From Escherichia coli (GTDB taxonomy: Bacteria > Pseudomonadota > Gammaproteobacteria > Enterobacterales > Enterobacteriaceae), in the NCBI GenBank assembly GCA_032372955.1, contig GCA_032372955.1_4725.1: DNA of 64,000 nt; one strand, 5' to 3'. Position 1 is the first letter of the stretch; every line of letters begins with the position of its first letter. The notes below the pieces were generated by a model. The model searched no databases and was not told the DNA's origin. It saw only the letters and a program-made list of their open reading frames with translations. Positions 1,291 through 59,759 of this stretch are shown here, piece after piece. The position numbers were made by a program, and so were the translations under genes.

Positions 1291-1313
1291 GGTCTATATT
1301 ACCTAACTGATAG
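1291..1313 (+). promoter_or_regulatory. TATATTAC element (early-promoter-like)
   Basis: ggtcTATATTACctaactg, about 120 nt upstream of gene 1426; same 8-mer upstream of four other genes. Confidence 0.45.
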
Positions 1314-1425
1314 AACGCAAGGAGTTTAAGAAGTAAACCTTAACCGACTTGTGTTTTCCCTATGAAGAAAGAATCTTCTGATTTTATCCTTTTGATCGAT
1401 CGAAAAAACTAATTGGAGTATTAAC

Positions 1426-1905
1426 ATGTCTGAAGCTGTAGAAACCACCGTAGCGACTGAAACCACTTCTAACGTACGTCCGGAAGTTCAGGCTCTTTCT
1501 GATAAAATCGCCGCTGGTATTAAACTGGACGAATCTGGTAGCCAGAAGCTAGGCAGTGATTTCCTGGGTACTCTGGTAACACCGGAAGAAAAAGAAATCC
1601 TGGAAAAAGCACAGAAACTGACCACGGATATCGGTCTGGCTCACGGTCTGGCGGTTGGCCGCGTTGGCGCGCAGTTCATGGCGGATAACAAACAGGTTGA
1701 CGTTGTTTCTGTAACCCTGCCGCTGGGCAAAGACGTTGTGTCTGCAACGGTTCAACGTAGCGCTGAAGTTGGTTTCGGCTCTAACGAGAAGAAACAGGTT
1801 TACGGACGCCTGACCACCGCGTATAAGAAATCTTTCCCAACAACTCAGGTTAAGCATATTCGCGACAACATCAGTGCGTATGCAGCTGAGCTGCTGAAAG
1901 ACTGA
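1426..1905 (+). CDS. hypothetical protein, strong codon bias suggesting high expression
   Basis: 159-aa ORF with ggag RBS; codon usage dominated by ctg/cgt/ggt/acc. Confidence 0.6.
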   Translation: MSEAVETTVATETTSNVRPEVQALSDKIAAGIKLDESGSQKLGSDFLGTLVTPEEKEILEKAQKLTTDIGLAHGLAVGRVGAQFMADNKQVDVVSVTLPLGKDVVSATVQRSAEVGFGSNEKKQVYGRLTTAYKKSFPTTQVKHIRDNISAYAAELLKD

Positions 1906-1933
1906 TTGTAACCTAACACGTCTCTCTGTATGA

Positions 1934-1990
1934 CCCCACCGTAGCCCTGTATGGGGTTGCGGTGGCGGTTATGTCAAGGTTTTATTTTTA
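1934..1990 (+). terminator. hairpin plus T-rich tract
   Basis: ccaccg...cggtgg stem followed by ttttattttta after the stop of gene 1426. Confidence 0.45.
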
Positions 1991-2008
1991 TCCTTTGGGG
2001 TTAGCGCT

Positions 2009-2422
2009 GTGTTTTTATACACCCTTCAATTAGCCAAACATCGTTGGCTTTCAGACACACGAGCGTTCCTACTGGACACGACGGTGAAAACAGGTAACCC
2101 GCTCTTCGCACCTTCATGGGAACTTGTTACAGGAATCAAATCAAAAACGTTAACCGAGGATGAATATACCGCAGGCTACTACACGCTTATGCGCAAAAGC
2201 TTTGTTGATCATACACCGGAATGGTTGGCTTTATTCTCCCATCCGGTTGTGGTGTTAGGGTGTTATTGTCCTGCAGGAAATTTCTGTCACCGTCATTTGC
2301 TTACCGATATCCTTGAAAAGATCGCCATTCAAGAACGATTTCATTTTGTTAGGGGAGGTGAGATAACCAGTAAGGAACAGCTCGATTCATTAATCGAGTT
2401 TTGGAATAAGGAGTTTGAGTAA
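2009..2422 (+). CDS. hypothetical protein (GTG start in track)
   Basis: 137-aa ORF; start codon uncertain. Confidence 0.4.
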   Translation: MFLYTLQLAKHRWLSDTRAFLLDTTVKTGNPLFAPSWELVTGIKSKTLTEDEYTAGYYTLMRKSFVDHTPEWLALFSHPVVVLGCYCPAGNFCHRHLLTDILEKIAIQERFHFVRGGEITSKEQLDSLIEFWNKEFE

Positions 2423-2961
2423 TGAGTGTTTTTCTTATCGGTGCAGCAAAACCTAACAACAACGAACTATTGGGTATTGCGGAAGAGTTGGATGAACATG
2501 GCATGATCGTTTACTCTATCGACAAAGCGCTCAAAAGACTGGAACGGTGGCGTAATCTCGTTACGGATACACTGGATCGACGTAGCATGGTCTACGGATA
2601 TATGTTAGAACAATACGATGTCGCCGATAGAGCATCCACCACGCGTTCTGGCGCATTGTTTAAGACAACAATAGGAAGTTACCAGTTCGGTGGATTAGAA
2701 TTGCTGGAAGCGTTATATAAGCTCTCAGAGGGCATTCATCACGATGATCTCGATGACCTTCGGGAATATGTGAATGAAAGACTCCCATTCGTGATTCCAG
2801 ACGCGCAACTGATGTTATTAACACAACGTGAGGAGGAACATCTTTACAAACTTGCTTGTACGACAATGCGTCATATTCGTCGTTATCGTAATCCTGAATT
2901 CATTGAATCCCAAGAATATCCTGATGTTATTTTCATTCGTGAAGCTAAGAACACACAGTAA
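2422..2961 (+). CDS. hypothetical protein
   Basis: 179-aa ORF; aaggag RBS; ATGA overlap with upstream stop. Confidence 0.55.
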   Translation: MSVFLIGAAKPNNNELLGIAEELDEHGMIVYSIDKALKRLERWRNLVTDTLDRRSMVYGYMLEQYDVADRASTTRSGALFKTTIGSYQFGGLELLEALYKLSEGIHHDDLDDLREYVNERLPFVIPDAQLMLLTQREEEHLYKLACTTMRHIRRYRNPEFIESQEYPDVIFIREAKNTQ

Positions 2962-2973
2962 ATAAACCATAAA

Positions 2974-3032
2974 CCTTCCTTCCCCGGCCTTGACGGCTAG
3001 GGAAGGAAGGGAGGTTAATATGCTTTTTTTTT
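2974..3032. terminator. bidirectional terminator hairpin between convergent genes
   Basis: ccttccttccc/gggaaggaagg 11-bp stem; T-run on plus side, A-rich tract on the other side. Confidence 0.55.
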
Positions 3033-3035
3033 ACG

Positions 3036-3926
3036 TTACACGCGAGGTGTTACGTTTTGATAAGTATTCGGTACCTCAAAGGTATCGTTGTTATCAAAGT
3101 CGAAGGTATAGCCAACCTTCTGCGCTGCCACAGCAGGATCGATGTCGCTCAGGTAAGCCGGACGGAAATCCGGGTTCACTTTAAGCAGGTTCATCTTATC
3201 CAGCAGACGTTGTGCGAAAGCACGTACGCCGTAGTTGGTCTGTGTTAACGCGGTGAACTGAATGCTCAATTCTACCACGTTTGGCGCATCGTTCTTGTTA
3301 CGACGTGATGTCCAGTCACCGGTACCGTGAGGCATCATGTTCGTGCACAGCCAGGCGTTAACCACTTTCTTGTGTTGACGGTCCGGCTCAACGAACAGCA
3401 TTGTTGCGCTACGATAATCCGCCAGCAGGTCGGTTGGACCACCGGTGGATACGATAGACGACAACATCGGATATTTGGCATCCGGATCCATCAACAGATA
3501 CGTGATCCATTGTTCCAGGAAGTAGCTAACGGAACGACCTTCTTTCTCATAGATCCCGAAAGTCGGGTTAGAGCGAGGACGTTTAACGTCAGAGACTTCT
3601 TCCTGGATTTCACCGGAACCAGAAACCGGGACGCTAACGAATTCAACTTCCAATCCGCGTTGCAGACCGGTAATCGAATGCGCAACCTCTTCTACCAACG
3701 CCTTCAGATAACCAATCTGTACATCCGGGTTAGGTAGATAGTTGAAACCACGTGGTGCCTCCAGCAGGAGACAGAACATTTGGTTCGGAATGTAGTTGGC
3801 GTTAGCAACGTACGTACCGATATTGCTGATGTACCCGTTTTGGGCACCCGCACGAATATCGACCATAGCCGCGTTGCTAAGAGCACCAACACCCTGTTCA
3901 CCGAGTAGGGTATTATCAGGACGCAT
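3036..3926 (-). CDS. putative tail tube protein
   Basis: 296-aa ORF immediately downstream of the 690-aa gene on the same strand; gaggag RBS. Assignment from size and gene order only. Confidence 0.4.
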   Translation of the reverse strand: MRPDNTLLGEQGVGALSNAAMVDIRAGAQNGYISNIGTYVANANYIPNQMFCLLLEAPRGFNYLPNPDVQIGYLKALVEEVAHSITGLQRGLEVEFVSVPVSGSGEIQEEVSDVKRPRSNPTFGIYEKEGRSVSYFLEQWITYLLMDPDAKYPMLSSIVSTGGPTDLLADYRSATMLFVEPDRQHKKVVNAWLCTNMMPHGTGDWTSRRNKNDAPNVVELSIQFTALTQTNYGVRAFAQRLLDKMNLLKVNPDFRPAYLSDIDPAVAAQKVGYTFDFDNNDTFEVPNTYQNVTPRV

Positions 3927-14285: not shown

Positions 14286-15530
14286 TTAACGCGACATCGC
14301 ACGTCGAACGTAATAGTTACGGCTAAACACACGAAGCAGGATATACAGAAAGACACCAGTGCGTGTCGCTGCAGCCTCAGCGTCGTTTCTCGCGTTGGTT
14401 GCTTTCTTAATGACTTCAGAGCCGAGTTTACGCAGTTCTAACAGTTTCGGGTTGCTGGTGCGGTTAGACGTGTACACGTTACGCATGTAGAATAAGAACG
14501 TAAGATCGCGCATATCGACCTTATTCAAGATGATATACTCGATAGCATGCTCCATTACAAGCCGCAACATCTGAGAGACCTGCTTTCCGTCCTTTGTCGG
14601 CCGTTCTACGTTAGCGCTGATATAGCTTAACGCTCGCTCAAGGGATAAAAGATTGGTAGTATGATGCACGTCGAGTATGACGACCATGAGCTCACGTTTA
14701 ACGAAACTTGTTCGGTCATAAGCGATTTCGAACAGATATTGACGATAAGTGGTTTCGTTGCGTTTAATGTCGCGGACAGCGAGGCCGTCGTCTAATTCTA
14801 CAGTTTGAGAGGACGTGCCTATCTTCTTACCCTCTTCATACATCGCATAGTACGTATCGGTGATACGGTTGATAACCTTACGGATTCCGGTATTCACATC
14901 ACGTACAAAACGTTCGGCGACGCTATCAGGTTCCAGGGTTGACCAACGACTGAAATGTGTGCTATTACGCGCGATGATGGCATTACAGCGTTCGTCGATG
15001 TACTCATTCCAGCTATTCATGCGCTTGATGCCTGATTTGAGTGTTAACTCATCGTACGCCTTAATGGCGATAGCCGGATCAGCGTTATAAGGATAACGTC
15101 GTGCTACCAGACCGCAAATGAATTTATAATGGAGGACTTGCATTGCTGCAAGCATCCCGGCTTCACGAACCTTTTCTTTTTTGATTTGTTTGCTGTGGAA
15201 GATCGCATAAAGCAACCAACAGCAACTTAGGTTAAAGGCGTTTGAGGCAACACGGTTGGTCTGCGTATTGTAAAAGGGCAGTTTACTCAAATCGCGTCGT
15301 AAGCTTTCTTCATCCATCATCAAGACGTCGGAAAACCACATATCGTTATGTCTTGTTGTGAATCGGATTTTCTGTACACCTAACAGAACCCCACCGAAAA
15401 AACGCATATGTTCTTGGTCTTGCGTACGGAAGCGTGTCGCGTAACGGATAACCTGATTAACAAAATACTCGTCGATGTCAATGCCTTCCGCATGCGCATT
15501 AAACACCTGTAAAATAGAAGACATGAGCAT
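14286..15530 (-). CDS. hypothetical protein
   Basis: 414-aa ORF; start may be the second ATG at 15524 (better RBS spacing). Confidence 0.55.
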   Translation of the reverse strand: MLMSSILQVFNAHAEGIDIDEYFVNQVIRYATRFRTQDQEHMRFFGGVLLGVQKIRFTTRHNDMWFSDVLMMDEESLRRDLSKLPFYNTQTNRVASNAFNLSCCWLLYAIFHSKQIKKEKVREAGMLAAMQVLHYKFICGLVARRYPYNADPAIAIKAYDELTLKSGIKRMNSWNEYIDERCNAIIARNSTHFSRWSTLEPDSVAERFVRDVNTGIRKVINRITDTYYAMYEEGKKIGTSSQTVELDDGLAVRDIKRNETTYRQYLFEIAYDRTSFVKRELMVVILDVHHTTNLLSLERALSYISANVERPTKDGKQVSQMLRLVMEHAIEYIILNKVDMRDLTFLFYMRNVYTSNRTSNPKLLELRKLGSEVIKKATNARNDAEAAATRTGVFLYILLRVFSRNYYVRRAMSR

Positions 15531-15635
15531 GCTCCCTCAGATGGTAAACGTAATAAAGACTGTCATATCATCGCGAAATGGAGATTAAAATAAACCTACA
15601 TTACCTTCCTGATTACACTCGCGGAAGGCAATGCA

Positions 15636-30080: not shown

Positions 30081-30250
30081 ACGAACTCCGTAAGAAGATG
30101 GTAAACGGATATGACATTACTCTCAATAAGAGAAGTAAAAGTTTACAGACATATCCTGATTATATGTAGAAAGAATGTTGCTTCTCGGCAGCGTTCGCCT
30201 AGGGGTTTATATCGTTCAATGTGGTTACACCAATATTGAAAAAAATTTCA

Positions 30251-30270
30251 GGGTTATATTACCTAGGTGA
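30251..30270 (+). promoter_or_regulatory. TATATTAC element (early-promoter-like)
   Basis: gggtTATATTACctaggtg about 75 nt upstream of the chimallin candidate. Confidence 0.45.
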
Positions 30271-32305: not shown

Positions 32306-32322
32306 TTTGTAGGAGATACCCC

Positions 32323-35570: not shown

Positions 35571-35585
35571 TCCATTTAATGGCTG

Positions 35586-35610
35586 CCCTCCCTGCCTTAT
35601 GCAGGGAGGG
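35586..35610 (+). terminator. hairpin
   Basis: ccctccctgc cttat gcagggaggg 10-bp stem. Confidence 0.5.
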
Positions 35611-35619
35611 TTTATGCCG
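35611..35619 (+). promoter_or_regulatory. TTTATGCCG element after hairpin (late-promoter-like)
   Basis: Exact 9-mer about 35 nt upstream of the probable start at 35653. Confidence 0.4.
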
Positions 35620-35652
35620 CATGCAATCTTAAAATTGAAAACGAGGACAATC

Positions 35653-36450
35653 ATGAGTGTAAAACGTACTTCTCTGGGCTATCGTCGCATTGCGAGCCTG
35701 GCAACCCAAGAGGATATTATCTATCGTATCGAACACGATAAATTAGAATTTACCATGAACGACGCAGCCAATATCTGCGGTCGTTTAAACATTGAACGCG
35801 ATAGCAATAATGCGATGTATGTTGCCGCATTGTATTTTAATGGACGGTTGATTGAAACGAGTTTCAGCGTTGATCGCTTTGAGGATACCAGTAGCAGAGT
35901 GAAAACATTGATGGCGAACATGTTCGTCCGTACGTATTTACGTACACGTATTTCACGTTACGTTGGAAACGGTTTATCGGAAACAGAAGAGCATGGCTTA
36001 CGTCGCGGACTTTATAAATTGCTTTTAGAATTGCTGCCTACGCGGTACGGTATTACGGTTCCTGATGTGGATGATGTGTACTGGCGAGATACGTTGGACT
36101 GGATGCTGTATCAGATTTCCGAGACGACCTCCGACCTTCGTTATACCCGAAGCTTAAAAGGAGGAAGCTATGCCGTATACCGCAGCCTTCGTTATAATGA
36201 ACAGCAACATAAGGCGATGATAGTCACACGTCTTGTCTTCACGGTGAAAAGCGGATTAGGAGATACAGCTAACATTGAACCTTTCTCTGAGAAAAGCCAG
36301 TATACGACACATCTCATCGAACCCGTCGATTGTGTTACTGACGATCATACGCTCGATCGTTACGCACGACAGATCTGGCAGACGCTGACGTTACCGCATA
36401 TGGACATCGGTCTTCAGTCGTATACGCATCGTGATAGGAGAACACGTTAA
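35653..36450 (+). CDS. hypothetical protein
   Basis: Start at MSVKRT with gagga RBS; the track's N-terminal extension from 35599 overlaps the hairpin. Confidence 0.5.
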   Translation: MSVKRTSLGYRRIASLATQEDIIYRIEHDKLEFTMNDAANICGRLNIERDSNNAMYVAALYFNGRLIETSFSVDRFEDTSSRVKTLMANMFVRTYLRTRISRYVGNGLSETEEHGLRRGLYKLLLELLPTRYGITVPDVDDVYWRDTLDWMLYQISETTSDLRYTRSLKGGSYAVYRSLRYNEQQHKAMIVTRLVFTVKSGLGDTANIEPFSEKSQYTTHLIEPVDCVTDDHTLDRYARQIWQTLTLPHMDIGLQSYTHRDRRTR

Positions 36451-36459
36451 TCCAACATT

Positions 36460-36479
36460 TTTCACGGCTATATTACTTA
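36460..36479 (+). promoter_or_regulatory. TATATTAC element (early-promoter-like)
   Basis: tttcacggcTATATTACtta, a 20-mer identical to 59740-59759. Confidence 0.5.
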
Positions 36480-36569
36480 AGTGATGTACAACATCAATCG
36501 ACTGTATAAGGCATATCACATTGTCCTTATATTGGAAATTAAATCCTAACGAAATCCGAGGATAGTAAA

Positions 36570-37034: not shown

Positions 37035-37048
37035 GTATTTTTGCGGTC

Positions 37049-37096
37049 TCTCCCTACCTTCGGGTGGGGAGGGGCTGCCCATTCTTTTTTATTTTT
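37049..37096 (+). terminator. hairpin plus T-run
   Basis: tctccctacc ttcg ggtggggag then cttttttatttttg. Confidence 0.55.
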
Positions 37097-37152
37097 GTAA
37101 CTTTCTACGAATTTCCACCACCCTATGAAATGAAAAGCTTGAGGAGAACGGA

Positions 37153-37602: not shown

Positions 37603-37615
37603 AGAGGAGTTCCTC

Positions 37616-38023
37616 ATGGCATCGAATCCGTTACCTGGGCTGTCGAGCTTTTTAACCGCGTCGGGAAAAAAGCTGGATGGGTTAATGACCAATTTCGCAA
37701 TATCGAATTATTCCCAGTCGTATTGCTACCAAGGCTCTATCGTTTCACTACCGTACCTCATTGCAACGTCGCAGTATAGCGCACCCAAATTGGAAGATGC
37801 GACATACCGGATGTTGTATGATTATTTAATGCGTTATTACGATCGCGTGGAATTGAAAGTCCGTGTCAAGTATATCGATCCGACGACGGAACGTGTCGAT
37901 CTCCAGATTGGTGGGATTGTCACAGAGAAAGGTATATCGTACGATTTGGGCGGTGTTCTGCGATCCGAGCGTGGTAATTTTATCAAGTGGCAGGAGGAAG
38001 TAAATGAAGGCGCGCCAAACTAA
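37616..38023 (+). CDS. hypothetical protein
   Basis: 135 aa; agagga RBS. Confidence 0.5.
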   Translation: MASNPLPGLSSFLTASGKKLDGLMTNFAISNYSQSYCYQGSIVSLPYLIATSQYSAPKLEDATYRMLYDYLMRYYDRVELKVRVKYIDPTTERVDLQIGGIVTEKGISYDLGGVLRSERGNFIKWQEEVNEGAPN

Positions 38024-38786
38024 CAGCAACGTTAGCGAAGGAACGGATTTATTGGGGTATCCGGCTGGGGTGGTGGTTGTAAATGAAGAAGAGCGCATCC
38101 GTCGCGCTCAGGATCCGTCCATCCCGAAAACAAGACCGGACATGTGGCAGGAGCTGGTAGACAACAGCGAGCTTCTACGAAAAGGTTTACAGGAGATGAC
38201 GCGTCCCAACATCCTGCCTGAATCGCTGTTTGTTAAACATTTCTTGTATCCGTTCGCAGGAATGTTTTCGCAGGATCCTGAATACGCGGAGATGCTGAGT
38301 AATAGCACCATTGTTCACGATTGGTGCAAGATAGCAGGCCAACCGCATCGTGCTGTTAATATTGTTGCTGATGGGAATAACAACAAGGTTCTGTTTACGG
38401 TACCAGCTATCTTTATCCGGACACGTTCATACATCAATCGTGACCCCAATACGTGTTTCCTCGCGATGGTGGACAAAGCACGCCGACAGTATAACTTCAA
38501 TCCTGAAAGCGCTAAAGCTTACGTCGACCATCAGCTTGATCGCTTTGCCCCAAATGAAAGCAAAGACCATGTTGTTGCTGATTACGTGCAATGGCTTCGG
38601 ATTTTTGACCATTATAACGTACCCCTTTACGACGTTCGTGATGGTTCACGTCGTACGGTAAAAGAGCGTGGGTTATTAAATGGATTGAATCTGGCCAGAA
38701 CTTCTTCAACAACTGCGTCGGTGGGTAGTAGAAACATGCCGTCTACGACGGGGACTATTAGCAGCAGCAACTTAGAGGAATTCTGA
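38004..38786 (+). CDS. hypothetical protein
   Basis: 260 aa; ggaggaag RBS. Confidence 0.5.
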   Translation: MKARQTNSNVSEGTDLLGYPAGVVVVNEEERIRRAQDPSIPKTRPDMWQELVDNSELLRKGLQEMTRPNILPESLFVKHFLYPFAGMFSQDPEYAEMLSNSTIVHDWCKIAGQPHRAVNIVADGNNNKVLFTVPAIFIRTRSYINRDPNTCFLAMVDKARRQYNFNPESAKAYVDHQLDRFAPNESKDHVVADYVQWLRIFDHYNVPLYDVRDGSRRTVKERGLLNGLNLARTSSTTASVGSRNMPSTTGTISSSNLEEF

Positions 38787-39928
38787 TGCGGGACTTCAGT
38801 CGAAATAAAACGCCTGGGGTATTACGTGGAATCAACTTGTCGGATATTCACTTTATCCATCGTCAAACACCGACAGTAAACCTGATTAGCCAACTACGTT
38901 ACTACATCACAAAAGAAGATCCTGCGCTGCTTGATGTGATTACGTTCAGTGGCGATGTCTTCGATCGTATTACGACATTTGTGACGAGTGATGTGGTTGC
39001 TGTTCGTGCCTGGGGTACCTGGTTGTTACGGTATGCGAGAAAACACGATATTACGTTGATCTTTCTTGAGGGTACCAATTTACACGACCAGAAGCAAAGC
39101 CAGTGGTTCGTTGAACAGAACGAGGTCATGGAGATAGGAGCGAAAGTTCGTTATTACGATGATCTCTGCATGGTTGATGAAGACTTCGGTTTAAAAGTGC
39201 TTTATCTTCCAGATAACTACAGCCACGATCCGGATGTGACGTTGTCGGCTGTGAACCGACTTATTGATGAGAAGGGATCGCCGGACTTCATTCTGATGCA
39301 CGGCGCGTTCGAATATCAGCTTCCACCAGAAGCGTTAAAAGCGACATGTGTTCATAGCAGCGATGCATATAACGCAATGGTAGAGAAGACCCAAGGGTGG
39401 GTCGTGAGCGGGCATATCCACTTACAATCCCAGAAAGGACGTATCATGGTTGGTGGTTCGTTCGGCCGCTTGTCGCATGGCGAAGAAGGTCCAAAGGGGT
39501 ACCTCCGTTATACGTTAACAGAATCGTTTAACGACCAGTGGGAATTTGTTGAGAACAAGAAAGCAGATGTCTACAAGACGATAAAACTGCACGGTCTTGT
39601 TGGAGATGAAATCATTCGTGTGTTGGAACGGGAACTGGCTCCATTGAAGAAGGGCGATCATATTCGAATACGCTGCGATAAGGAAGACGATGCGGCGAAA
39701 ACGTTTCGTTCCATTCCTTCTTTGTATCCAGGCTTTGTCTGGTCAATTAAAACGGACGCCAAGAACAACCAGTCGCTATTAAAGAACAGTTTTGTCAATA
39801 ACGTTATCGAGAAAGGCGGAGACTTGACAAAGGACAACGTTAAGCGTTTGTTGGTCGAACGCATTCGTAATAAATACCCGAACGTTGATGCCTTAAAGGT
39901 TTCTGCTTGGCTTGATACGTTGCCATGA
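38786..39928 (+). CDS. Mre11/SbcD-like metallophosphoesterase nuclease
   Basis: 380 aa with ordered calcineurin-like motifs: LSDIHF (DxH), SGDVFDR (GDxxD), EGTNLHD (GNH[DE]-like), LMHG, SGHIH (GHxH). Confidence 0.55.
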   Translation: MRDFSRNKTPGVLRGINLSDIHFIHRQTPTVNLISQLRYYITKEDPALLDVITFSGDVFDRITTFVTSDVVAVRAWGTWLLRYARKHDITLIFLEGTNLHDQKQSQWFVEQNEVMEIGAKVRYYDDLCMVDEDFGLKVLYLPDNYSHDPDVTLSAVNRLIDEKGSPDFILMHGAFEYQLPPEALKATCVHSSDAYNAMVEKTQGWVVSGHIHLQSQKGRIMVGGSFGRLSHGEEGPKGYLRYTLTESFNDQWEFVENKKADVYKTIKLHGLVGDEIIRVLERELAPLKKGDHIRIRCDKEDDAAKTFRSIPSLYPGFVWSIKTDAKNNQSLLKNSFVNNVIEKGGDLTKDNVKRLLVERIRNKYPNVDALKVSAWLDTLP

Positions 39929-39947
39929 TAAGAAGGAGTTGTGGGGT

Positions 39948-40745
39948 ATGAGCGATATGTACGCCCGCACGTTAGGTGATTATCCTTTATCGGTGGGGAC
40001 GTCAGCAACATTATCAGCCGTGCAGCAACAGCCAGAAACACAGATGGATTGGTTGTTCAACCTTCGTACTTTAGCACGCAATTTCGTTGAAAGCTTTGAA
40101 GACGTTGAACAACATAAATTACCGTTATCGATGATAACGGGGGATTTTCAAAACGAGTTACTGCAGCTAAGGCAGTTGGTGAATGAACTCGTTCCCCATA
40201 TTCGCTTGCGGATATATGCGCCAACCTATGCGTCAATAAAGCGTGTTTATCCGCACGCGATACATAAGGAGCCACACACCGAAAAACAAAAAGGACTCGC
40301 TACACTTTATCGTGGGTTGATGGCGTCTGTAGATCGACTCCCTAATATCGAATCGATGGATTGTAAATTACCCACGATAACCAAGACATCGTATATCACC
40401 ACGCACTATGTTTCTGACTTGTTGGCAAGAACCGGTTTTGGTGAACTTATTTTGGTAGAAAGCCATACCGGAACTTTGAAACGAAAACATCAGTGGTCAA
40501 CCAAACTTACTGGTGGGGATCGTCCAGAGGTTGCGAACCTTCCATTTACAAAGATGACCTTGGGGACGTTCGGTGACCAAGCCGTACAGTTCAACAGCGG
40601 GCCGGTGAAAATAAAAAGGATGTTGTTAGATCTTGCGAAACAGAGTCAGTGGAATCCATTAACAACGGAAGACCGTACACGCTTTGGCGTCAACCAGTTA
40701 CGTGACCCCTTTGCAAAACGTTTTCTGTTGGACATGTTCCGCTGA
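39948..40745 (+). CDS. hypothetical protein
   Basis: Start at MSDMYART with aaggag RBS 9 nt upstream. Confidence 0.5.
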   Translation: MSDMYARTLGDYPLSVGTSATLSAVQQQPETQMDWLFNLRTLARNFVESFEDVEQHKLPLSMITGDFQNELLQLRQLVNELVPHIRLRIYAPTYASIKRVYPHAIHKEPHTEKQKGLATLYRGLMASVDRLPNIESMDCKLPTITKTSYITTHYVSDLLARTGFGELILVESHTGTLKRKHQWSTKLTGGDRPEVANLPFTKMTLGTFGDQAVQFNSGPVKIKRMLLDLAKQSQWNPLTTEDRTRFGVNQLRDPFAKRFLLDMFR

Positions 40746-40818
40746 GGCTGTAATTTTTAACTAATATTGACTATCATCTGAACCAGAAATTGATTCACAC
40801 TACGTAACGAGGCTGAAA

Positions 40819-41610
40819 ATGAGCAATTGGAATTCGGGCAGTAAACCACAAGGAAACATTATTCCTACAGCGTATGACGACAACAACTGGAAACTGTGGG
40901 CGGACGAAAAGGTTGAGGGCGGTAATTCAGTCCCCTCATTGAAAATTAGCGTTGCTAAGAATCAACCGCGTATCACGGTTTACACTGGTCGTAAAGACCA
41001 GCAGGGTCGCGCTGAAAGCATTTGGGCACGCATGAGCTCATACGCGTTCTATAACCTGCTTGCGATCCTCGAGCAGGTTGCTAAGGGTAAGCCAGGCCAA
41101 CGCTTTGCGATGAAGAACGAAAAGGTTATCGACGATCGCAATAACCCAGGTAAGAAGAAACAGATTACCGAAAGTACAACGTGGGTTGGTAAGAACGATG
41201 ATGGTTCGGTATATATCGCTGTAACAGCATACCAAAAACCAAACATCCAATTCGTATTCAAGCCACCGCGTTTCCACGCTCTGGTTGATGAGTCTGGACA
41301 ACCTTTACAGATCGGGGTTGTTTCTCCGCTTTGTGCGTTGGAATTTGTACGTATTCATCGCGCGGTGTTGCCGAGCATCCTCGCAACCAATTTCGACGGT
41401 GAAAGCCGTAGCGTAAGTAATGGTGGCAACAATAACTATAACCGTAACAATAACAACGGCGGCGGTAACCGTAATGCTGGTAACGGCCAGTACAACGGTA
41501 ACTCTAACGCATCAAGTTCGGCTTCAGTGGCCCCTGATACCCGTTGGGATGCGCCAAGCGCAAATGACGACGATGATCCGTCCGTAGCCTTTGATGGCTT
41601 AGCGTTCTAA
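40819..41610 (+). CDS. hypothetical protein with Asn/Gly-rich linker and acidic C-terminal tail (SSB-like architecture)
   Basis: 263 aa; C-terminus NGGNNNYNRNNNNGGGNRNAGNGQYNGNSN...SANDDDDPSVAFDGLAF. Confidence 0.45.
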   Translation: MSNWNSGSKPQGNIIPTAYDDNNWKLWADEKVEGGNSVPSLKISVAKNQPRITVYTGRKDQQGRAESIWARMSSYAFYNLLAILEQVAKGKPGQRFAMKNEKVIDDRNNPGKKKQITESTTWVGKNDDGSVYIAVTAYQKPNIQFVFKPPRFHALVDESGQPLQIGVVSPLCALEFVRIHRAVLPSILATNFDGESRSVSNGGNNNYNRNNNNGGGNRNAGNGQYNGNSNASSSASVAPDTRWDAPSANDDDDPSVAFDGLAF

Positions 41611-41745
41611 CAATGCTTTAGCATCGCATTCTGAGTCTTCGATTCAGAAGGTAACGCGAATATTTTCCGTTAGTGCAAGGTGTCTCGCTTCGGCGGGATG
41701 CCTTGCATGCTGAGCGATAACTCAGCCGGAATCCAAAATTATTCA

Positions 41746-41765
41746 CGCTTATATTACCTTTGTGG
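41746..41765 (+). promoter_or_regulatory. TATATTAC element (early-promoter-like)
   Basis: cgctTATATTACctttgtgg about 60 nt upstream of the start at 41815. Confidence 0.45.
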
Positions 41766-41814
41766 TAGACGTCATAGAATACGTTTTAACAGGGAACCGC
41801 GAAAAGAGGTTGTT

Positions 41815-43401
41815 ATGCACATAGTGCCCGTCATTACGACGCAAGGAAAAGAAAAGCTGGATCACTATCTCATCAAACACCGTGATGGACGTACTGTGGA
41901 ATTTTCAGGTCAGGGTTACATCAAGATTGATGGGGATATGGCTAGCAATCAGATGCGGGAGATTAACAAGTATCTCGCCTGGATAGAACAAAAGAACCCA
42001 CGTCGAATTGACGACATCTTTGAAGGGTTCGTTAAAGCACGTGAAGCGATGGATAACTACATTGCTCCACAACAACAAATGGAGGAGTTGAGCCGCGCTG
42101 TTGGTGAAATTTACAAACCGGTTGTGTATGAAGAGATTCTGGCATTGTGTAATACCCCAGGTTGGGTAAAATTACCGCCGGACATGAAAACAACATTAGG
42201 TGAGGATGATATACCCGAGAAAACCTATTTACGAAATGATTACGTTGAGTTAACGGCGTTAGCGATCTACGTCCGTCTGATGGTGCCGATTTGGGCAGAG
42301 TTTCTGATTGACGCAGGGAAAACGTACGGGACGGTCCGTAAAGAAGAAGTGGCTATGTCGCTGATGTATAAAACACGCATTCATGATATCGCCGCTTACG
42401 ACCGACTGGAAGACTATATCCGCGCACAAACGGGTGATAAAAAGATCACGCTGTCGATGACCGTGGATTACATGTCGACGGAGAAAGTACCCGGTTGGTT
42501 GCGTTCACAAGCCATCGTTCGTCGTCTCGCTGTACGCGATTTGGACCAAGCTGTACAGCCTGTCGTTAAAGATGGGGTGTTGGTGAGTTGTACGCATCTG
42601 GTAACGTTAATCTTTAGCTATGTGAATAACCTTTGTACGGAACGACGTTTCAGTGGACCGATTCGTGAGAAAACCCCACGAGGAAACGCGCAAGATGAAG
42701 ACAGTCAAGGCGTGATCGATGCGTTGATGGTGAAAGATAAACGTTCACCGCGTGTACTCATTCTTGACATCGCCTATCTTACCCAGATGGAACGTGTGTT
42801 GCACGACGTCGACGAAACGGCACCTTACGGTAAAGTTGAAGACATGTATGCGCGTATCGCAAAACGTTACGATGGATACACGTACGCTAAACACGATGAC
42901 ACCGTTGAGTTAAAACCAATCAACCGCGGATGCCGAGCACTGGCACAATGGTTGCTTGATAGCCATCTTCCGGCGAGAAGTCTGGCACCGATTGAAGCCG
43001 TGCATCAGGCAAAAGCGTTAGCCATCGCAGCGTGCTTGTTAGACCATTGGGGTTTTCCTCAACTGGCCGCGCTGACCGTAGGTATCCAGGTTAAACGCGA
43101 CGATGTTTATCAGATTATCCACCAATTAAAACCACAGGAGATCATTACTGTCAATAAATTGTATCCACACGCCATGTATGAAGATGAACGTACAACTTTA
43201 CCGGTTGTCGGTATTAACATGGTGGCCGATGCGTTTTGTGAATGGGACTGGGATGTTTCAGCAGCAGGCCCGGAAATCCTTGAGAAAGTCCCAGCTGACC
43301 GTAAAGGATTGATGCTTTGTCCAGCAGATATCCGTCAGCAGCTTGTGCAATTAGTTGTTCGATTAAATGAACACGTAGTAAATTTAAGAGGAAAAAAATA
43401 A
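41815..43401 (+). CDS. hypothetical protein
   Basis: 528 aa from MHIVPVITTQ with agagg RBS; the track's N-terminal extension from 41680 overlaps the promoter-like element. Confidence 0.55.
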   Translation: MHIVPVITTQGKEKLDHYLIKHRDGRTVEFSGQGYIKIDGDMASNQMREINKYLAWIEQKNPRRIDDIFEGFVKAREAMDNYIAPQQQMEELSRAVGEIYKPVVYEEILALCNTPGWVKLPPDMKTTLGEDDIPEKTYLRNDYVELTALAIYVRLMVPIWAEFLIDAGKTYGTVRKEEVAMSLMYKTRIHDIAAYDRLEDYIRAQTGDKKITLSMTVDYMSTEKVPGWLRSQAIVRRLAVRDLDQAVQPVVKDGVLVSCTHLVTLIFSYVNNLCTERRFSGPIREKTPRGNAQDEDSQGVIDALMVKDKRSPRVLILDIAYLTQMERVLHDVDETAPYGKVEDMYARIAKRYDGYTYAKHDDTVELKPINRGCRALAQWLLDSHLPARSLAPIEAVHQAKALAIAACLLDHWGFPQLAALTVGIQVKRDDVYQIIHQLKPQEIITVNKLYPHAMYEDERTTLPVVGINMVADAFCEWDWDVSAAGPEILEKVPADRKGLMLCPADIRQQLVQLVVRLNEHVVNLRGKK

Positions 43402-43402
43402 A

Positions 43403-44989
43403 ATGATCCCGATGAATGTTCGTGAAATCCTGATGGTTGAAACCGCACCGTACAACAACGTACAACGTCGTCCACTACGATTCCACGCAGATAGCATGCG
43501 TAGCATCGAAGACTTTATTAACACGACGCGGTTCGGTACGGCAACAACACCATCAGCAATCAATAAGCTTGCAACCGGGTTGTTGCAGCAGTCTGCAGAA
43601 CCTGAGGGGGTTTCGGAGATTGCGAATGGTTGGGGCACACGCCGTTTCCATTTCATGATGGCTGTAGAAGAATCCTTGGCTCTCGCACCAGGAACCAAGC
43701 GTGTCCATTACATTTCTGGATACACCGACCATTCTGTAAGCCTTGATGCGTTTACAACGCGTGCTATCGATCTGCCGAATGAACTGGTGTTCTTCTTCAC
43801 GAATGTAATCCAGGTAACCGAAACAACCACAACGGATATGTTCGGTAAGCAAATCGTTCGTGCAACCCCGATGGATGCAACGAACCTGTTGACTGGTGCA
43901 TACGACCCCGTTAATCGCGATGTTCAGTTCAGTACTCGTGTTCAGGATACGCTGACTTATGCATCGACCGCACGTTGGGTAGGCAATGGTGGTTTTGATA
44001 ACCAGTTCATGGACCCAGCGATGCAGAACGTGATGCAGCAGTTCGATCCCGCCTACGCTGACGTGGTTCATCGTACATCCTACCCACCGCAGCCGGAACC
44101 GGTTTTCCGTGGTGTGGAGGCAGCAATGTGTTTCGCAACGGAGAAAATCAAACCAGCTAGTGCCGATACGAACATCCCAACCATCTATCTAAGAAAAGCC
44201 TTCGATAATGTTGGGGCTATTCGTCAAACGTACGAAAGCGGGTCTCATCCAGGTAGCGCAGAGAACGAGGATATTTACGTAGAAGCCGCTCAAGCTGTTC
44301 GTGAAGAACCGTTGGTTGCGCATCCAGTATTCGGTGCGATTATGCGTGATGAAGGATTCGCTTTCAGCGGTAGCCTGAGTTGGGCTGACATGAAACGGAT
44401 GTTCGGTGAACATATCCGTGACGTCTTAACGTTATTCCCGTATGTGGAAGCCCGTCGCGGTACATCAGCAACCACCGAGTTTGGTTGGATGCCGACCGAC
44501 AGCCAGAGCTGGGATGTGATCGATTATCCAACGCTGTATTGTTCATCGCTTGCTGCAATGATGCCTGCTGCCATGACGTATCGCATGTTGGAATCGTTCC
44601 GTTTCATTGCTGACAACCACGGTCACCCAGAACTCGGTATCATGCCAGGTCAATGGGCGGTTGCGGTTACCGACGCCGTACCGTTCATTAAAGGATACGA
44701 TTGTAACCGTGCTGCTGAACAAATGCGTTCTGACATGATTACCAATATCCTACCCTCCATGTTGGGCAACAACCCGAATGCGGTTATGGTGAGCGGCGCG
44801 ATTAACCTGTTCCTGGACAGCCAGTTCAAGATCAGCGTTGACGGTTCTGCACCGATTCCGTACACCATGCCGAACATCAACCCATCCGCATACAGCCCGC
44901 TGCTCAACCGTAGCCAGCAGGAGGTGTATAAGCTGAGCGTTGATTTGTTTAACCTGGTGGATGCGGTAACTACCAAAGGCAACTTCTAA
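43403..44989 (+). CDS. hypothetical protein
   Basis: 528 aa; agagga RBS. Confidence 0.55.
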   Translation: MIPMNVREILMVETAPYNNVQRRPLRFHADSMRSIEDFINTTRFGTATTPSAINKLATGLLQQSAEPEGVSEIANGWGTRRFHFMMAVEESLALAPGTKRVHYISGYTDHSVSLDAFTTRAIDLPNELVFFFTNVIQVTETTTTDMFGKQIVRATPMDATNLLTGAYDPVNRDVQFSTRVQDTLTYASTARWVGNGGFDNQFMDPAMQNVMQQFDPAYADVVHRTSYPPQPEPVFRGVEAAMCFATEKIKPASADTNIPTIYLRKAFDNVGAIRQTYESGSHPGSAENEDIYVEAAQAVREEPLVAHPVFGAIMRDEGFAFSGSLSWADMKRMFGEHIRDVLTLFPYVEARRGTSATTEFGWMPTDSQSWDVIDYPTLYCSSLAAMMPAAMTYRMLESFRFIADNHGHPELGIMPGQWAVAVTDAVPFIKGYDCNRAAEQMRSDMITNILPSMLGNNPNAVMVSGAINLFLDSQFKISVDGSAPIPYTMPNINPSAYSPLLNRSQQEVYKLSVDLFNLVDAVTTKGNF

Positions 44990-45045: not shown

Positions 45046-46326
45046 ATGTCGAAGCTTATCGAAGCTTATCGCAAAGCACTACAGAGCGTTAACTATTTTG
45101 AGAATGACGCCCACGAATTAGAATATCGTTTTACGGATGGGGATGGTAAAGTTGTTGCGGTTGCCGCTACCGTGGAAAGCATGCCGCTGCTGATGCCGGT
45201 TTCCGAAGTTCGTACCGGAAATCAGCTGGCTGAACGTGTGCTGTTCCATCCGCTAAGTGAAGACGTGATGAACGGCGAATCGGAAGTACTTCAGTTCCTG
45301 CGTCGTGCGATGGTTGTTCGTTTTAATGCCACGCTATGCTCCATGCTGATTTGGATGGTTGAAACCGCAATCAATCCTAAAGAAGCAAAACGTTTCGGAC
45401 CGAAGCAAAAAGAGTTCTTCAACATCCTTGCGGACGCCAGCGATAAAACATTAACGACCCTGGGCAAACTGGTCACCGTTTGGCTGAAACGTGACACACC
45501 GTATACGCTGTCCAAAATTTATCTTCGTCGTACTGGTGCAACCTACATGGGTAAGAAGATGACCCGTGTTGCGGTCGTTACTTTCCCGTTCATGGAAGAA
45601 GAACACATCAGCACGAAAGATAAGAAAACGTACTGGTGTGGTGTTGAGATTTCCAAGAAAGATCTTAACATGCTGAGAAACCTGGTTGAGTACGTTATCC
45701 CGCACGCGGGCGAAGTAAGTGAAACGTACAATGCTGGGTCAAGCGATCCTCATGCTCCGTATTTCGATTGTCTTATCCACAGCTTCGCTAAGCTGATGGA
45801 ACCGCTGAACCATCTCATCAAACTGTTTGGTGATAAGTACGACGGTAAAGAGAACGGTTATTGTGATGTTACCTGGGTCGAGGATTTTGAACCGATCAAT
45901 CAACATCGTGGTCAGATTCCGCCAGCGAAATACAACATGGGTGTAACGCTGAACAGTCGTCCACAGCCGACGGTTAAGCCAAACCCATCAGCAGCTGCAC
46001 ATGAAGGTATGCAACCGCGTCCTGCTTCAACAGGCAGTGTGATCGATAACCTGTTGGGTAAAACCGCACCTGTCCAACCTAATCAGTGGGAAAGTGGTGG
46101 TAACCAACCGGCAGGTAATAGTACGTTTGATGCGTTGATGAACCGTGTTGCGGAACGTAACGGTACGATGTTCAATAATGCTGCTTGGCCAGGCATGGGC
46201 ATGCAACCTGCTGGGTGGGGGATGCCGCCAGCACCGCAGTCGCCAAACGGTTTACGTCGTCGTGCTGAGATGGAACGTAACAACATCCTGAGCGCGTGGA
46301 CAGGACATACTGTAAATCGTTTCTGA
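45046..46326 (+). CDS. hypothetical protein with Pro/Gln/Gly-rich C-terminus
   Basis: 426 aa; aagga RBS; 10-nt tandem duplication gaagcttatc x2 at the start. Confidence 0.55.
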   Translation: MSKLIEAYRKALQSVNYFENDAHELEYRFTDGDGKVVAVAATVESMPLLMPVSEVRTGNQLAERVLFHPLSEDVMNGESEVLQFLRRAMVVRFNATLCSMLIWMVETAINPKEAKRFGPKQKEFFNILADASDKTLTTLGKLVTVWLKRDTPYTLSKIYLRRTGATYMGKKMTRVAVVTFPFMEEEHISTKDKKTYWCGVEISKKDLNMLRNLVEYVIPHAGEVSETYNAGSSDPHAPYFDCLIHSFAKLMEPLNHLIKLFGDKYDGKENGYCDVTWVEDFEPINQHRGQIPPAKYNMGVTLNSRPQPTVKPNPSAAAHEGMQPRPASTGSVIDNLLGKTAPVQPNQWESGGNQPAGNSTFDALMNRVAERNGTMFNNAAWPGMGMQPAGWGMPPAPQSPNGLRRRAEMERNNILSAWTGHTVNRF

Positions 46327-49476: not shown

Positions 49477-49833
49477 ATCCCTGGTATGAGTGATAACGAA
49501 AATCGTTCCGTAGCAGTGAACTACGTCAACAATTTAATCTTGCAAGAACTTACTCGTGATGCAGTAAGGGCATCAAATAAGCTAGGTTTTATCAACCACC
49601 ACGGACACATCATCGACATTAACAATCCTGACTGCCAGATCGTCGACATACGCAGCCAGGTCGAACACGTCGCTAACGTCATGGTTAAAGCTGAATACTG
49701 GCTGGAAACCATGAAAGAGCATGTTATCCAACCCCAACAATTAGATATCGACGTTGATGAAATTATTGAACAAGTTGAAGAGTCGTTCAATGAACTTGTC
49801 AACCACCGTATCGAAAAAGTTTTAAAGTTTTAA
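49477..49833 (+). CDS. hypothetical acidic protein (paralog of 49867)
   Basis: Start at MSDNENRS with aagagga RBS; shares NNLILQELTRDAV with RKLTLQELARPIG in the next gene. Confidence 0.45.
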   Translation: MPGMSDNENRSVAVNYVNNLILQELTRDAVRASNKLGFINHHGHIIDINNPDCQIVDIRSQVEHVANVMVKAEYWLETMKEHVIQPQQLDIDVDEIIEQVEESFNELVNHRIEKVLKF

Positions 49834-50872: not shown

Positions 50873-51017
50873 TGTCGCCGACTTTTACTCCGGCAGTGGA
50901 GATATATTAACACCTACATAACCTAAGAGAAGGGATTCCCGATGCTATCATGGCGATAGTAAATTCCAACGGAATTGGTAAACCGTATGATAAAACCATT
51001 TAAATCGGAAAGTAATA

Positions 51018-57415: not shown

Positions 57416-57481
57416 TTATTCTGCCTTATTAAATAAGTACAACGCATATACGTCATACGATCTTGCAACAAATACAGCATA

Positions 57482-57509
57482 AAGCTCTGCATGATGTCAG
57501 GTAGAGCTT
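57482..57509 (-). terminator. hairpin downstream of minus-strand helicase gene
   Basis: aagctct ... agagctt arms. Confidence 0.35.
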
Positions 57510-57514
57510 CTTAA

Positions 57515-59596
57515 TCACCATTCCAAGAACGCAGGTCGTGGTTTAATATCGTATTCCGTGGTGTTTACGGTAACGTATTGATCGTATCCTTCCATCGCCA
57601 ACGTTTCTTGCAAGTTAACATCATCTTGCTTGTTCACAACATATTTGACACCCGTGATTTCTTCAACAAGCTGTCGACTTAACTCCATGATTTCGTGGCT
57701 ACGTGTAGAAACGTTACCCTCGCTTCCCGTATCTAACATGAAACGATAAATCCGAACAGGTTGCGTTTGCCCTACACGGTCAAGACGGCTGATGGCTTGG
57801 ATTTCATCGGATGAACGCCATGGGTTGTTCAGGAAAAGACCGACATTACACATCAGCATCGGAACCCCTTCAGCTAAGCTATCAAATGTTGCGATAGCGG
57901 GACCGCTGTCAGGATCATCGCGTAAGCGAGCAAGTATCTGGTTGATGTTCTTGTTGGTCTTCCCGTAAATGGGTTCAGGTAAGAAACCCGCATCACGAAG
58001 CATGTTGTCGACGCGCTCAACCACCTGAACGTACGACGTGAAGATCAACACTTTGGCTTCAGCGTTGTTGATGTACCCTTCGAAGTCGATGTACTCCACC
58101 ATGTCGACATGACACCGAATGCGGGCTGCACCTAGAACACGGGCCAACGCTTCACCCTGAATTTTCAACCCAACGTACTTGATGACACTCTTGGCGTCTT
58201 TGAAAGCAATCCTTAAATCGGAAGGAAGAACCGGCATGATAGAACGTTTTTCAAACGCATTGCAGAACATCGCATCTTCTTTGTCTCTGACGGGATCGTA
58301 ACCTTTCTGGAAACGAGCGACGATCGATTCGTATCGAGATAGCTCTTTACGTTCTCCGTCGGTACGAATAGTCTTACGATAGTAGTCCAAGGCGTCATCA
58401 AAAATCTTTCTGTAGTGTCCCCAGTTATCCTTGTAATACTTCGCCCGATCGCGTACAAATATCGCCATGTCGTCGCGGATACTCGAGATGGTATAATCGC
58501 TGCCGTTAGGGAGCTTCACGTAAACATCCTGAACTTCCGGTCGGGTTTTACGATAAGCTTCTTTAGGTACAACATGCATCATGAACCCAAGACGATGTCT
58601 GAGGATATCGTTAGCGCGACTGCTGGTTAAACCGTAAATCGCTTTGAAGCTATCGACCACCTGTCCTTGGAACATCGGGTCGATACAACCTAAACATGGG
58701 ATCATCTCAGAACCCATCTGTTTAACGGGCGTACCCGACATAAACAAGACATGCACATCCGCATTCATGGTCTGACGCATCGTCTGTACGAGATCAACCA
58801 ATCGTTGGGAACGTTGGCTGTTCTTGTCGTTGAAGTTATGGCTTTCGTCAACCACGATCAACACGCGCTTCGCTGTGCGTTTATGCTTGATCATTACATC
58901 GTTTAATAAACCCATCGACTCGTAATGCAGAAAATAATACTTATCGCTTTTCTGCAACTGTGATGGTGGCATTGTATCTGACCAGAACGCGGTTTCTGTT
59001 GCGGGGTCAACGATGGCTTTGTTTACATCGGATTGCCATGCTGAACGCATGGTGTTCTTAGGACAGCAGACCACAAATACATCGACGTTCATTGCGGCGC
59101 TTAAAGCCAATGCGGTGATTGTTTTACCGGCACCAGCACCCATCGCACACACGTATCCTTTCAGTCGGTATTTAGGTACGTTACGGTTATAGATGTCGAT
59201 AAACTCATCTTGATAATCGAACAGGGAGAGCGTTAGCATTTTGTTCATGCGTGCTTTATCGAGGATTGCAGGTTGTTCGATTGTGGTATTTTGCAGCCAC
59301 GTTTCCTGCAGCAGTACCTCAATAAGGTGTTTCAGCATGCGTTTGTTACTGCGGGTATTCTTTGCTTCGATGATCGTTTCGAGAATATAAACGAAATCGG
59401 GAAGGTAAAAGTTGTGGAGACTGAGTCCACTAGAAGAGAAATTACGAAACATATGTTTCATAAATCGGGAGGTACCCCATATTCGCTGAATGTCATCTGA
59501 AAGACGCCAGGCATCGATACCCCCGATATGCACGGTGTTGTTACTCTGATTTTTAACCGCTATTCGGTTCATTAAACGATTGATTCTATCCAACAT
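57515..59596 (-). CDS. SNF2-family helicase/ATPase
   Basis: Walker A GAGAGKT; DExH VVDESHNF; motif III MSGTPVKQ; motif VI QAISRLDRVGQTQPVRIYR. Start set at ATG for MLDRINRL; the track extends to 59644. Confidence 0.8.
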   Translation of the reverse strand: MLDRINRLMNRIAVKNQSNNTVHIGGIDAWRLSDDIQRIWGTSRFMKHMFRNFSSSGLSLHNFYLPDFVYILETIIEAKNTRSNKRMLKHLIEVLLQETWLQNTTIEQPAILDKARMNKMLTLSLFDYQDEFIDIYNRNVPKYRLKGYVCAMGAGAGKTITALALSAAMNVDVFVVCCPKNTMRSAWQSDVNKAIVDPATETAFWSDTMPPSQLQKSDKYYFLHYESMGLLNDVMIKHKRTAKRVLIVVDESHNFNDKNSQRSQRLVDLVQTMRQTMNADVHVLFMSGTPVKQMGSEMIPCLGCIDPMFQGQVVDSFKAIYGLTSSRANDILRHRLGFMMHVVPKEAYRKTRPEVQDVYVKLPNGSDYTISSIRDDMAIFVRDRAKYYKDNWGHYRKIFDDALDYYRKTIRTDGERKELSRYESIVARFQKGYDPVRDKEDAMFCNAFEKRSIMPVLPSDLRIAFKDAKSVIKYVGLKIQGEALARVLGAARIRCHVDMVEYIDFEGYINNAEAKVLIFTSYVQVVERVDNMLRDAGFLPEPIYGKTNKNINQILARLRDDPDSGPAIATFDSLAEGVPMLMCNVGLFLNNPWRSSDEIQAISRLDRVGQTQPVRIYRFMLDTGSEGNVSTRSHEIMELSRQLVEEITGVKYVVNKQDDVNLQETLAMEGYDQYVTVNTTEYDIKPRPAFLEW

Positions 59597-59636
59597 AATC
59601 GCGCTCGATTTAATAGAATGTATGATAAAAACTCCT

Positions 59637-59664
59637 CCCCACACCTTTCCTGGGGAGGAGGCCG
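59637..59664. other. GC-rich hairpin in divergent intergenic region
   Basis: 9-bp stem ctcctcccc/ggggaggag. Confidence 0.35.
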
Positions 59665-59739
59665 GGGATGTCCCTTAAAATGACGTCATTCGACAATCCA
59701 TAAAATACGATGGGCATCGAAACGGACCAACACAAATCC

Positions 59740-59759
59740 TTTCACGGCTATATTACTTA
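59740..59759 (+). promoter_or_regulatory. TATATTAC element (early-promoter-like)
   Basis: tttcacggcTATATTACtta, identical 20-mer to 36460-36479; about 50 nt upstream of gene 59805. Confidence 0.5.

Follow-up and report, generated by a model that had tools for sequence, protein, structure and literature searches.

The early promoters of bacteriophage phiKZ combine an extended −10 box with a T-rich stretch upstream of −19 (PMC8244752), and their published consensus is tatattaaaaaaaatttaagatgTATATTACaaatgTG, also written tatattaaaaaaaatttaagatgTATATTACaaatgtg (PMC12676376 Table S1). Between 28 and 32 of them have been mapped, by primer extension, RNA-seq, and differential RNA-seq (dRNA-seq) (Ceyssens 2014, as related in papers that cite it; Wicke 2021, PMC8244752), and PHIKZ054, the gene for chimallin, has the early promoter motif at its primary transcription start site (TSS) (PMC8244752). 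Here we describe a related element in a stretch of 64,000 nt of phage DNA (contig GCA_032372955.1_4725.1 of the Escherichia coli assembly GCA_032372955.1), hereafter the window. The octamer TATATTAC is present at five sites in it, and these sites very probably are early promoters of the phiKZ type, used by the virion RNA polymerase (vRNAP) of a Goslar-like chimallivirus. The original prediction had likened them to phiKZ early promoters with a core of this kind, and such a core is documented (PMC12676376 Table S1).

Early promoters have been mapped in other phages as well. In AR9, 41 of the form AAATATATATTAT-(6N)-G+1 are active without protein synthesis, and in phiKZ and phiR1-37 the TSS likewise lies 6 nt past the consensus (PMC5312081). 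A study on 201phi2-1 reports only six early promoters detected by ONT-cappable-seq and an early promoter upstream of gp124 (PMC11512511), a gene annotated as the ortholog of phiKZ gp68. In phiKZ, middle promoters are marked by AAanTTACc some 24 nt before the TSS and late ones by TATG, in which G is +1; both are used by the non-virion RNA polymerase (nvRNAP) (PMC4666361).

The window comes from a relative of Escherichia phage vB_EcoM_Goslar (NC_048170.1, 237,307 bp), with 97.5% identity in the 6-kb slice compared and in reverse orientation. Goslar is a nucleus-forming E. coli jumbo phage, placed in the literature in the family Chimalliviridae. Its vRNAP (gp196, the tagged marker) travels with the injected DNA into the vesicle of early phage infection (EPI vesicle), where the early programme runs, and chmA, picA, and chmC have normal transcript levels under arrest at the vRNAP-only stage (PMC10541120). 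This RNA-seq study does not discuss promoters (PMC10541120), the literature searched yielded neither a promoter map nor a TSS map for Goslar, and the only regulatory elements annotated in the Goslar genome record are terminators. The close relatives found in the phage collection and in IMG/VR were all 97–98% identical, which makes footprinting within the genus powerless: the 254-nt chmA upstream region has three variable columns among them, none near the element. The next-best ChmA after these relatives is about 24% identical to the window protein.

A conserved element at five sites

Exact copies of TATATTAC are found at positions 1295, 30255, 36469, 41750, and 59749, all on the plus strand, as had been originally reported; there is no further copy on either strand. 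The raw count is not significant. The expectation is 2.17 for both strands, close to the original estimate of about one random match per strand, and 6 of 100 shuffled sequences had five copies or more. Significance therefore rests on position and context.

The five sites have in common an element of about 45 nt, composed of an A/T-rich block, TTTCAsGGy, TATATTAC, and yTnnnTG. Relative to the octamer, CA stands at −6/−5 (GA at site 1295) and G at −3, and after it come y and T at +1/+2 and T and G at +6/+7. Numbered from the predicted start, TTT occupies −23 to −21 in four of the five sites (GTT at 1295), and an A-run or TTAATCCAA block lies at −36 to −25. The conserved flanks that had been noted thus exist and are longer than stated, but the rule of a g or c two positions before the octamer fails at 1295, which has t there (ggTC-TATATTAC). 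Sites 36469 and 59749 share the 20-mer tttcacggctatattactta (at 36460 and 59740), the identical stretch already recognized in the original prediction. The sites had also been described as lying in intergenic spacers. The octamers do precede plus-strand starts, but at 1295 and 36469 the preceding open reading frame (ORF) extends with its 3′ end into the upstream half of the element. Site 41750 is within a program-listed GTG ORF (41680–43401), yet 5′ of the annotated ATG at 41815.

A weight matrix of the family scored the five sites at 44–58 bits, while the next-best position reached 11.3 bits and the shuffle maximum was 10.4 bits (both strands, 128 kb). When each site was left out in turn, it scored 19–41 bits, in every case more than the best non-family position (12.7–16.4 bits). 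The eight intergenic sites of Goslar served to build a sequence-only covariance model, which found these eight again and also the five window copies, with E-values of 1e-10 to 1e-13. The copies cease to resemble one another some 30 nt before the core and 16 nt after it, and for this reason an origin by mobile or duplicated segments was rejected.

Two near-matches that the original prediction listed with the family, at 6084 and 15598, score at or below the shuffle level and do not belong to it. The score of the one at 6084 misses the threshold; the position is in the spacer that separates the divergent genes for the tail sheath and a virion protein, and the TATGCC words on either side of it look like late-type elements. 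The word TTTATGCC is present in this spacer divergently, at 6132 on the plus strand and 6082 on the minus strand, which accounts for the near-match. In the other, at 15597 (TACATTAC-cttccTG), core and T-G are present and the upstream half is absent; its 8.8–11.9 bits are at the shuffle level, and the profile search up to E = 10 did not recover it. The positions 15597–15604 and 50915–50922 of the window (Goslar 187639 and 151634) are the two best below the threshold, and they share GGAGAT-N10-CC-TACATwAC-CT, which was seen at only these two sites in the Goslar genome. Each is in a spacer before a sense gene (at 15636 the gp225 homolog, at 51018 the RNA polymerase (RNAP) beta-type gene), and the pair may represent decayed early promoters or a minor class of its own.

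A conserved intergenic word of 45 nt could in principle also be an operator, and initiation is not demonstrable from sequence alone; sites that bind a regulator, hairpin promoters like those of N4, terminators, or RNA processing sites would then explain the family instead of core promoters. We regard such explanations as highly unlikely. No shared or significant hairpin was found at the elements (minimum free energy −1 to −5.2 kcal/mol, z-scores −1.4 to +0.8), nor a stem followed by a T-run at any of the five, and they are strictly oriented at the heads of gene arrays. Furthermore, the same word is a mapped early promoter in phiKZ, with the TSS 6 nt downstream.

The core might alternatively be read by the E. 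coli RNAP, before any phage polymerase acts, as the −10 box of a sigma-70 promoter: TATATT agrees with TATAAT at five of six positions, and the sites with TTAATC have in it a weak −35-like word (3/6) located 16 nt upstream. A scan with the sigma-70 consensus, however, called none of the five sites, the best −35 candidate matching at three of six positions. None of the conserved features, namely the AC after TATATT, the CAsGG directly upstream, and the T-G at +6/+7, is a determinant for sigma-70, and the TGn of an extended −10 is lacking, so that promoters for the host enzyme are extremely unlikely at these positions. Sigma-70-like matches were fewer than in shuffled sequence in all three regions scanned, with 1 against 5.5 expected in 1–3200, 15 against 22.1 in 29000–43000, and 2 against 9.5 in 59400–64000. 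Such depletion would fit a phage that supplies polymerases of its own and avoids promoters for the host enzyme.

The element family in the Goslar genome

Goslar has ten exact copies of TATATTAC, all on the strand equivalent to the plus strand of the window. Eight of the ten are intergenic, although only 7.1% of the genome is (P = 2.4e-8). The eight intergenic copies carry the extended element, and the two intragenic ones, in gp003 and gp201, share the 8-mer only. The octamer is also among the most enriched 8-mers of the upstream spacers in Goslar, being present in 8 regions against 0.34 expected. The modest number of copies in the window would by itself allow chance clustering of an AT-rich 8-mer, but with all copies intergenic and co-oriented, about 30 further conserved positions in common, and the genome-wide bias just given, the probability of that explanation is practically negligible.

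In addition to the eight intergenic sites, the covariance model recovered four sites with the core TACATTAC and the element otherwise intact, the E-values ranging from 1e-4 to 2e-7. They are at 15060–15067, 43259–43266, 49725–49732, and 86698–86705 of NC_048170.1, on the minus strand and with TTTCRCGAC as the upstream block, and all four fall outside the window. One of them is inside the annotated 62-aa ORF gp047, and gp047 may accordingly be a mis-called gene, or else the promoter would be embedded in a small ORF. The family in Goslar thus has 12 members, which score 46–57 bits with a 12-member matrix; nothing else exceeds 13.3 bits, and the shuffle maximum is 14.4. All 12 are co-oriented with the next gene, with the predicted +1 located 25–205 nt before its start codon, and the T-G after the core is invariant in the 12 members as in the five of the window.

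Stray copies of TATATTAC in Goslar, outside the candidate promoters, numbered two (both sense and none antisense), against about eight expected when the shuffle expectation of the window is scaled. They look depleted, although the evidence is marginal (Poisson P about 0.01).

Correspondence with early promoters of phiKZ and other chimalliviruses

Over the 38 positions of the phiKZ consensus, the window sites have 29 (site 30255), 26 (site 1295), 22, 21, and 21 matches. Outside the 8-mer these become 21, 18, 14, 13, and 13 of 30, with a random mean of 7.9 and a standard deviation of 2.4, a strong agreement for the first two sites. When a position weight matrix was made from five phiKZ sites only, and hence independently of the window, its top four hits in the window were 30255, 1295, 36469, and 59749. 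The 41-kb chimallin locus of phiKZ contains seven exact copies of TATATTAC, all on the sense strand, and five of these are intergenic, upstream of gp036, gp041.3, gp054 (ChmA), gp058.1, and gp068, with the flanks aATtGAAAAAAATTTgAGATy-TATATTAC-TAAnnTG. The ChmA sites have nearly the same sequence in both phages (aatgaaaaaaatttgagattTATATTACtaaattG in phiKZ and tattgaaaaaaatttcagggtTATATTACctaggtG in the window), and the leader of chmA predicted from the conserved G is 66 nt long in each (NC_004629.1 45582–45647 and window 30269–30334). The gene for chimallin stands behind site 30255, as had been proposed, and in Goslar chmA is expressed early, at the vRNAP stage (PMC10541120).

The placement is conserved across genera. 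We compared the loci of phiKZ, Klebsiella phage Eowyn, PhiPA3, Erwinia phage RAY, Ralstonia phage RSL2, and the window (six genera), which range from 37% to 52% GC and keep one gene order: a reverse-strand gene, ChmA, nvRNAP beta, and farther on gp67-gp68-gp69-gp70. Their ChmA shares only about 24% identity with that of the window. Upstream of chmA, each of the six has TATATTAC or a one-mismatch variant with 5N-TG behind it, at a distance of 77–158 nt. Upstream of the gp68-like gene, each likewise has TATATTAC or a variant with two mismatches, at 38–67 nt, with T-G in five of them and G-G in Eowyn. TATATTAY-5N-TG is present in these loci in 17 sense copies and no antisense copy. Behind site 41750 is the gene for an ortholog, over the full length, of phiKZ gp68 (24% identity, E = 4e-34), the fifth nvRNAP subunit, which is required for promoter recognition.

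Several observations weigh against phiKZ-type early promoters. The sites 36469, 41750, and 59749, in which the upstream half is TTAATCCA...TTTCACGGC, match the phiKZ flanks only modestly (13–14 of 30), and site 41750 was not recovered in the window scan with the matrix of five phiKZ sites. Moreover, only 12 elements were found in Goslar, while 175 of its 249 genes are expressed at 5 min in RNA-seq (PMC10541120); either the early units are very long, or early promoters of a different form exist as well. The data presented here show the sequence family, its position and orientation, and its identity with the phiKZ element. For Goslar and for the window phage alike, analogy is the ground on which the +1 positions and the polymerase are assigned, and timing is inferred too, except for chmA and picA, whose early expression is published.

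The remaining point of this kind concerns the core itself, which in Goslar ends in ATTACc/t, while the middle promoters of phiKZ hold the word TTACC (AAanTTACc, PMC4666361). The elements might then be middle-class promoters, used by nvRNAP or a modified polymerase instead of vRNAP or besides it. In phiKZ, gp054 indeed has a middle-type secondary TSS in addition to its early primary one (PMC8244752), and the four TACATTAC members of Goslar adjoin regions of structural genes. On the other hand, the middle motifs of phiKZ are short and weakly conserved, whereas the window elements extend over about 45 nt with high conservation and agree with the early consensus from end to end, including the 5N-TG. 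They also precede chmA and picA, two genes with transcription in the vRNAP-only state, and the gene for a gp68-like subunit that must be made before nvRNAP is active. A middle class is the only alternative to which we give some weight, and even so we consider it improbable; early promoters for the vRNAP are the reading adopted in what follows.

Predicted transcription units and comparison with known systems

By analogy with the mapped systems, a multisubunit vRNAP would travel in the capsid and enter the early-infection vesicle together with the DNA, where it would recognize the double-stranded element of about 45 bp in four parts, namely the A/T-rich block (around −36 to −25), TTTCAsGGy (around −23 to −15), the core TAYATTAC (−14 to −7), and yTnnnT-G. 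The start would be the G 6 nt past the core, predicted at 1309, 30269, 36483, 41764, and 59763 (201930, 172964, 166055, 160777, and 142786 in Goslar), and transcription would require neither the host RNAP nor new protein synthesis. For the seven other members in Goslar the predicted positions are 2553, 15053, 43252, 49718, 86691, 113783, and 226681. The five promoters would thereby head five rightward early units. The products of one would be ChmA and an nvRNAP subunit, and of another the gp68-like specificity subunit of nvRNAP and the importer PicA; the other units would comprise an array with an HD-domain enzyme and two sets of small unknown proteins. With these units under vRNAP promoters, the injected polymerase would switch on the genes of the phage nucleus and of the second polymerase.

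Element 1 (1265..1309, octamer 1295–1302, plus strand) scored 39.4 bits (E = 1e-10, sequence-only model) and belongs to the A-run subclass. Its predicted leader of 117 nt leads to the ATG at 1426 of a homolog of Goslar gp214 (159 aa), for which Pfam gave no match, and further genes of the unit encode a DUF488-N3a protein (2009–2422) and an ORF (2422–2961). Element 2 (30225..30269, octamer 30255–30262, plus strand; 43.1 bits), the closest of the five to the phiKZ consensus, is followed after a predicted leader of 66 nt by the gene for the nuclear shell protein chimallin, ChmA (631 aa; 30335–32230, plus strand, by Goslar annotation mapped onto the window). Behind ChmA on the plus strand is the RNAP beta-type gene syntenic with phiKZ gp055 (32323–33672). 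This gene is one uninterrupted ORF of 449 aa in the window (region 32323–34198), while in its Goslar counterpart (167861–170910) about 1.4 kb follow gp247, with a group I intron and the HNH endonuclease gp186. This segment is absent from the window, and the window phage thus appears to be an intron-less variant at the locus.

Element 3 (36439..36483, octamer 36469–36476, plus strand), which scored 57.7 bits with the weight matrix and 47.9 bits with the sequence-only model, is of the TTAATCCA...TTTCACGGC subclass. A predicted leader of 87 nt leads to the ATG at 36570 of the Goslar gp182 homolog (154 aa), again with no match in Pfam. Only 9 nt past this first gene there is a very strong hairpin like that of an intrinsic terminator (37043..37078, plus strand) with a 16-bp stem, 10 G-C pairs, and a T-rich tail, so that unit 3 may be monocistronic or attenuated; the hairpin would bound or attenuate it before the downstream genes, including the ChmC-position gene (40819–41610). 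Element 4 (41720..41764, octamer 41750–41757, plus strand; 41 bits) has a predicted leader of 51 nt to the ATG at 41815 of the gp68 ortholog, directly followed by PicA (Goslar gp174; 43403–44989) and the gp70-position gene (45046–46326). Element 5 (59719..59763, octamer 59749–59756, plus strand; 37.8 bits) is located in a divergent spacer, facing the helicase gene on the minus strand (57515–59644). A predicted leader of 42 nt separates it from the ATG at 59805 of an HD-domain phosphohydrolase, the homolog of Goslar gp159, and a long plus-strand array follows.

According to the Goslar annotation, RNAP beta-type subunits are encoded by the ORFs at 32323, 46612, and 51018, and the window also holds the genes for tail sheath, terminase, PhuZ, and DNA polymerase. 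The annotation lists gp196, gp205, and gp207 as RNAP beta-type genes, and by it the vRNAP genes fall outside the window. A GC-rich terminator-like hairpin directly followed by TTTATGCC(G) was seen at 391, 22646, 26695, 35611, 49411, and 61579 on the plus strand and at 46355 and 55908 on the minus strand. Both TTTATGCC and TATGCCGT are enriched 11- to 19-fold in the upstream spacers of Goslar, and the resemblance of TTTATGCC to the phiKZ late promoter TATG (G = +1) suggests fused modules of a terminator and a late promoter.

The Goslar lineage could have split the early promoter of an ancestral chimallivirus into subclasses that possibly differ in strength, in timing, or in the need for a co-injected factor, a proposal that we put forward as doubtful. 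One subclass may be the A-run/TTTCAGGGT type, near-identical to that of phiKZ (chmA, gp214); a second may be the TTAATCCA...TTTCACGGC type (gp182, the gp68-like gene, and the HD-domain array); and the third may be the TACATTAC type, outside the window. If this were true, the subclasses would set up a graded programme, from immediate-early to delayed-early, inside the EPI vesicle.

Among nucleus-forming jumbo phages, Goslar serves as the E. coli model, and it is the phage in which the early-infection vesicle was described. The 12 candidate vRNAP promoters, five of them in the window, come with predicted +1 positions, and with these the existing RNA-seq could be re-read as transcription units. 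With so compact an element, transgenes could be expressed at the vesicle stage from the genome that is injected. The promoter is conserved over at least six genera, from five host genera. More speculatively, the TAYATTAC-5N-TG core, invariant across genera in which ChmA is only about 24% identical to that of the window phage, would give a portable, host-independent promoter for engineering any chimallivirus. Because the same promoter type is already mapped in phiKZ, this is not a new kind of element; known also from 201phi2-1 and AR9, it brings an advance in annotation and no new mechanism.

Among other phages that inject a polymerase, coliphage N4 has a single-subunit vRNAP that recognizes a DNA hairpin. 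The likeness to N4 is that an injected virion polymerase transcribes the early genes, and the difference is that the window elements have no hairpin potential. AR9 shares the core TATATTA(T/C), the distance of exactly 6 nt to the G start, and the use by an injected multisubunit vRNAP that needs no new protein synthesis. It differs in its uracil-containing DNA, in not being a nucleus-forming chimallivirus, in a purely AT upstream part, and in T, not C, as the last base of the core. The middle and late promoters of phiKZ recall the window elements in the TTACC word and the T-G start dinucleotide, respectively, but they are short and weakly conserved, unlike these long elements that follow the early consensus. 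For 201phi2-1, an AT-rich motif about 10 bp before the TSS is described, with conserved −10, −20, and −30 regions (PMC11512511), and its gp124 promoter is at the position of window site 41750.

The early promoters of phiKZ remain the nearest counterpart. They share with the window sites the 8-mer core and the 5N-TG spacing, in which G is the phiKZ TSS (a core-to-TSS distance taken from the statements in PMC5312081 and the consensus string in PMC12676376), and, to a degree that varies among the window sites, the T-rich stretch upstream of about −19 and the A-run farther upstream. In both phages the elements lie between genes in the sense orientation, and the genome encodes a packaged multisubunit RNAP, which for the window phage is taken over from the literature and annotation on Goslar. 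The window phage differs in its E. coli host and in a GC content of 46%, compared with 37% in phiKZ, and three of its five sites carry TTTCACGGC in place of the TTTAAGATG of phiKZ, and TTAATCCAAnA in place of the A-run. Goslar has in addition the TACATTAC variant, outside the window, and 12 copies of the element in 237 kb, whereas phiKZ has 28–32 in 280 kb.

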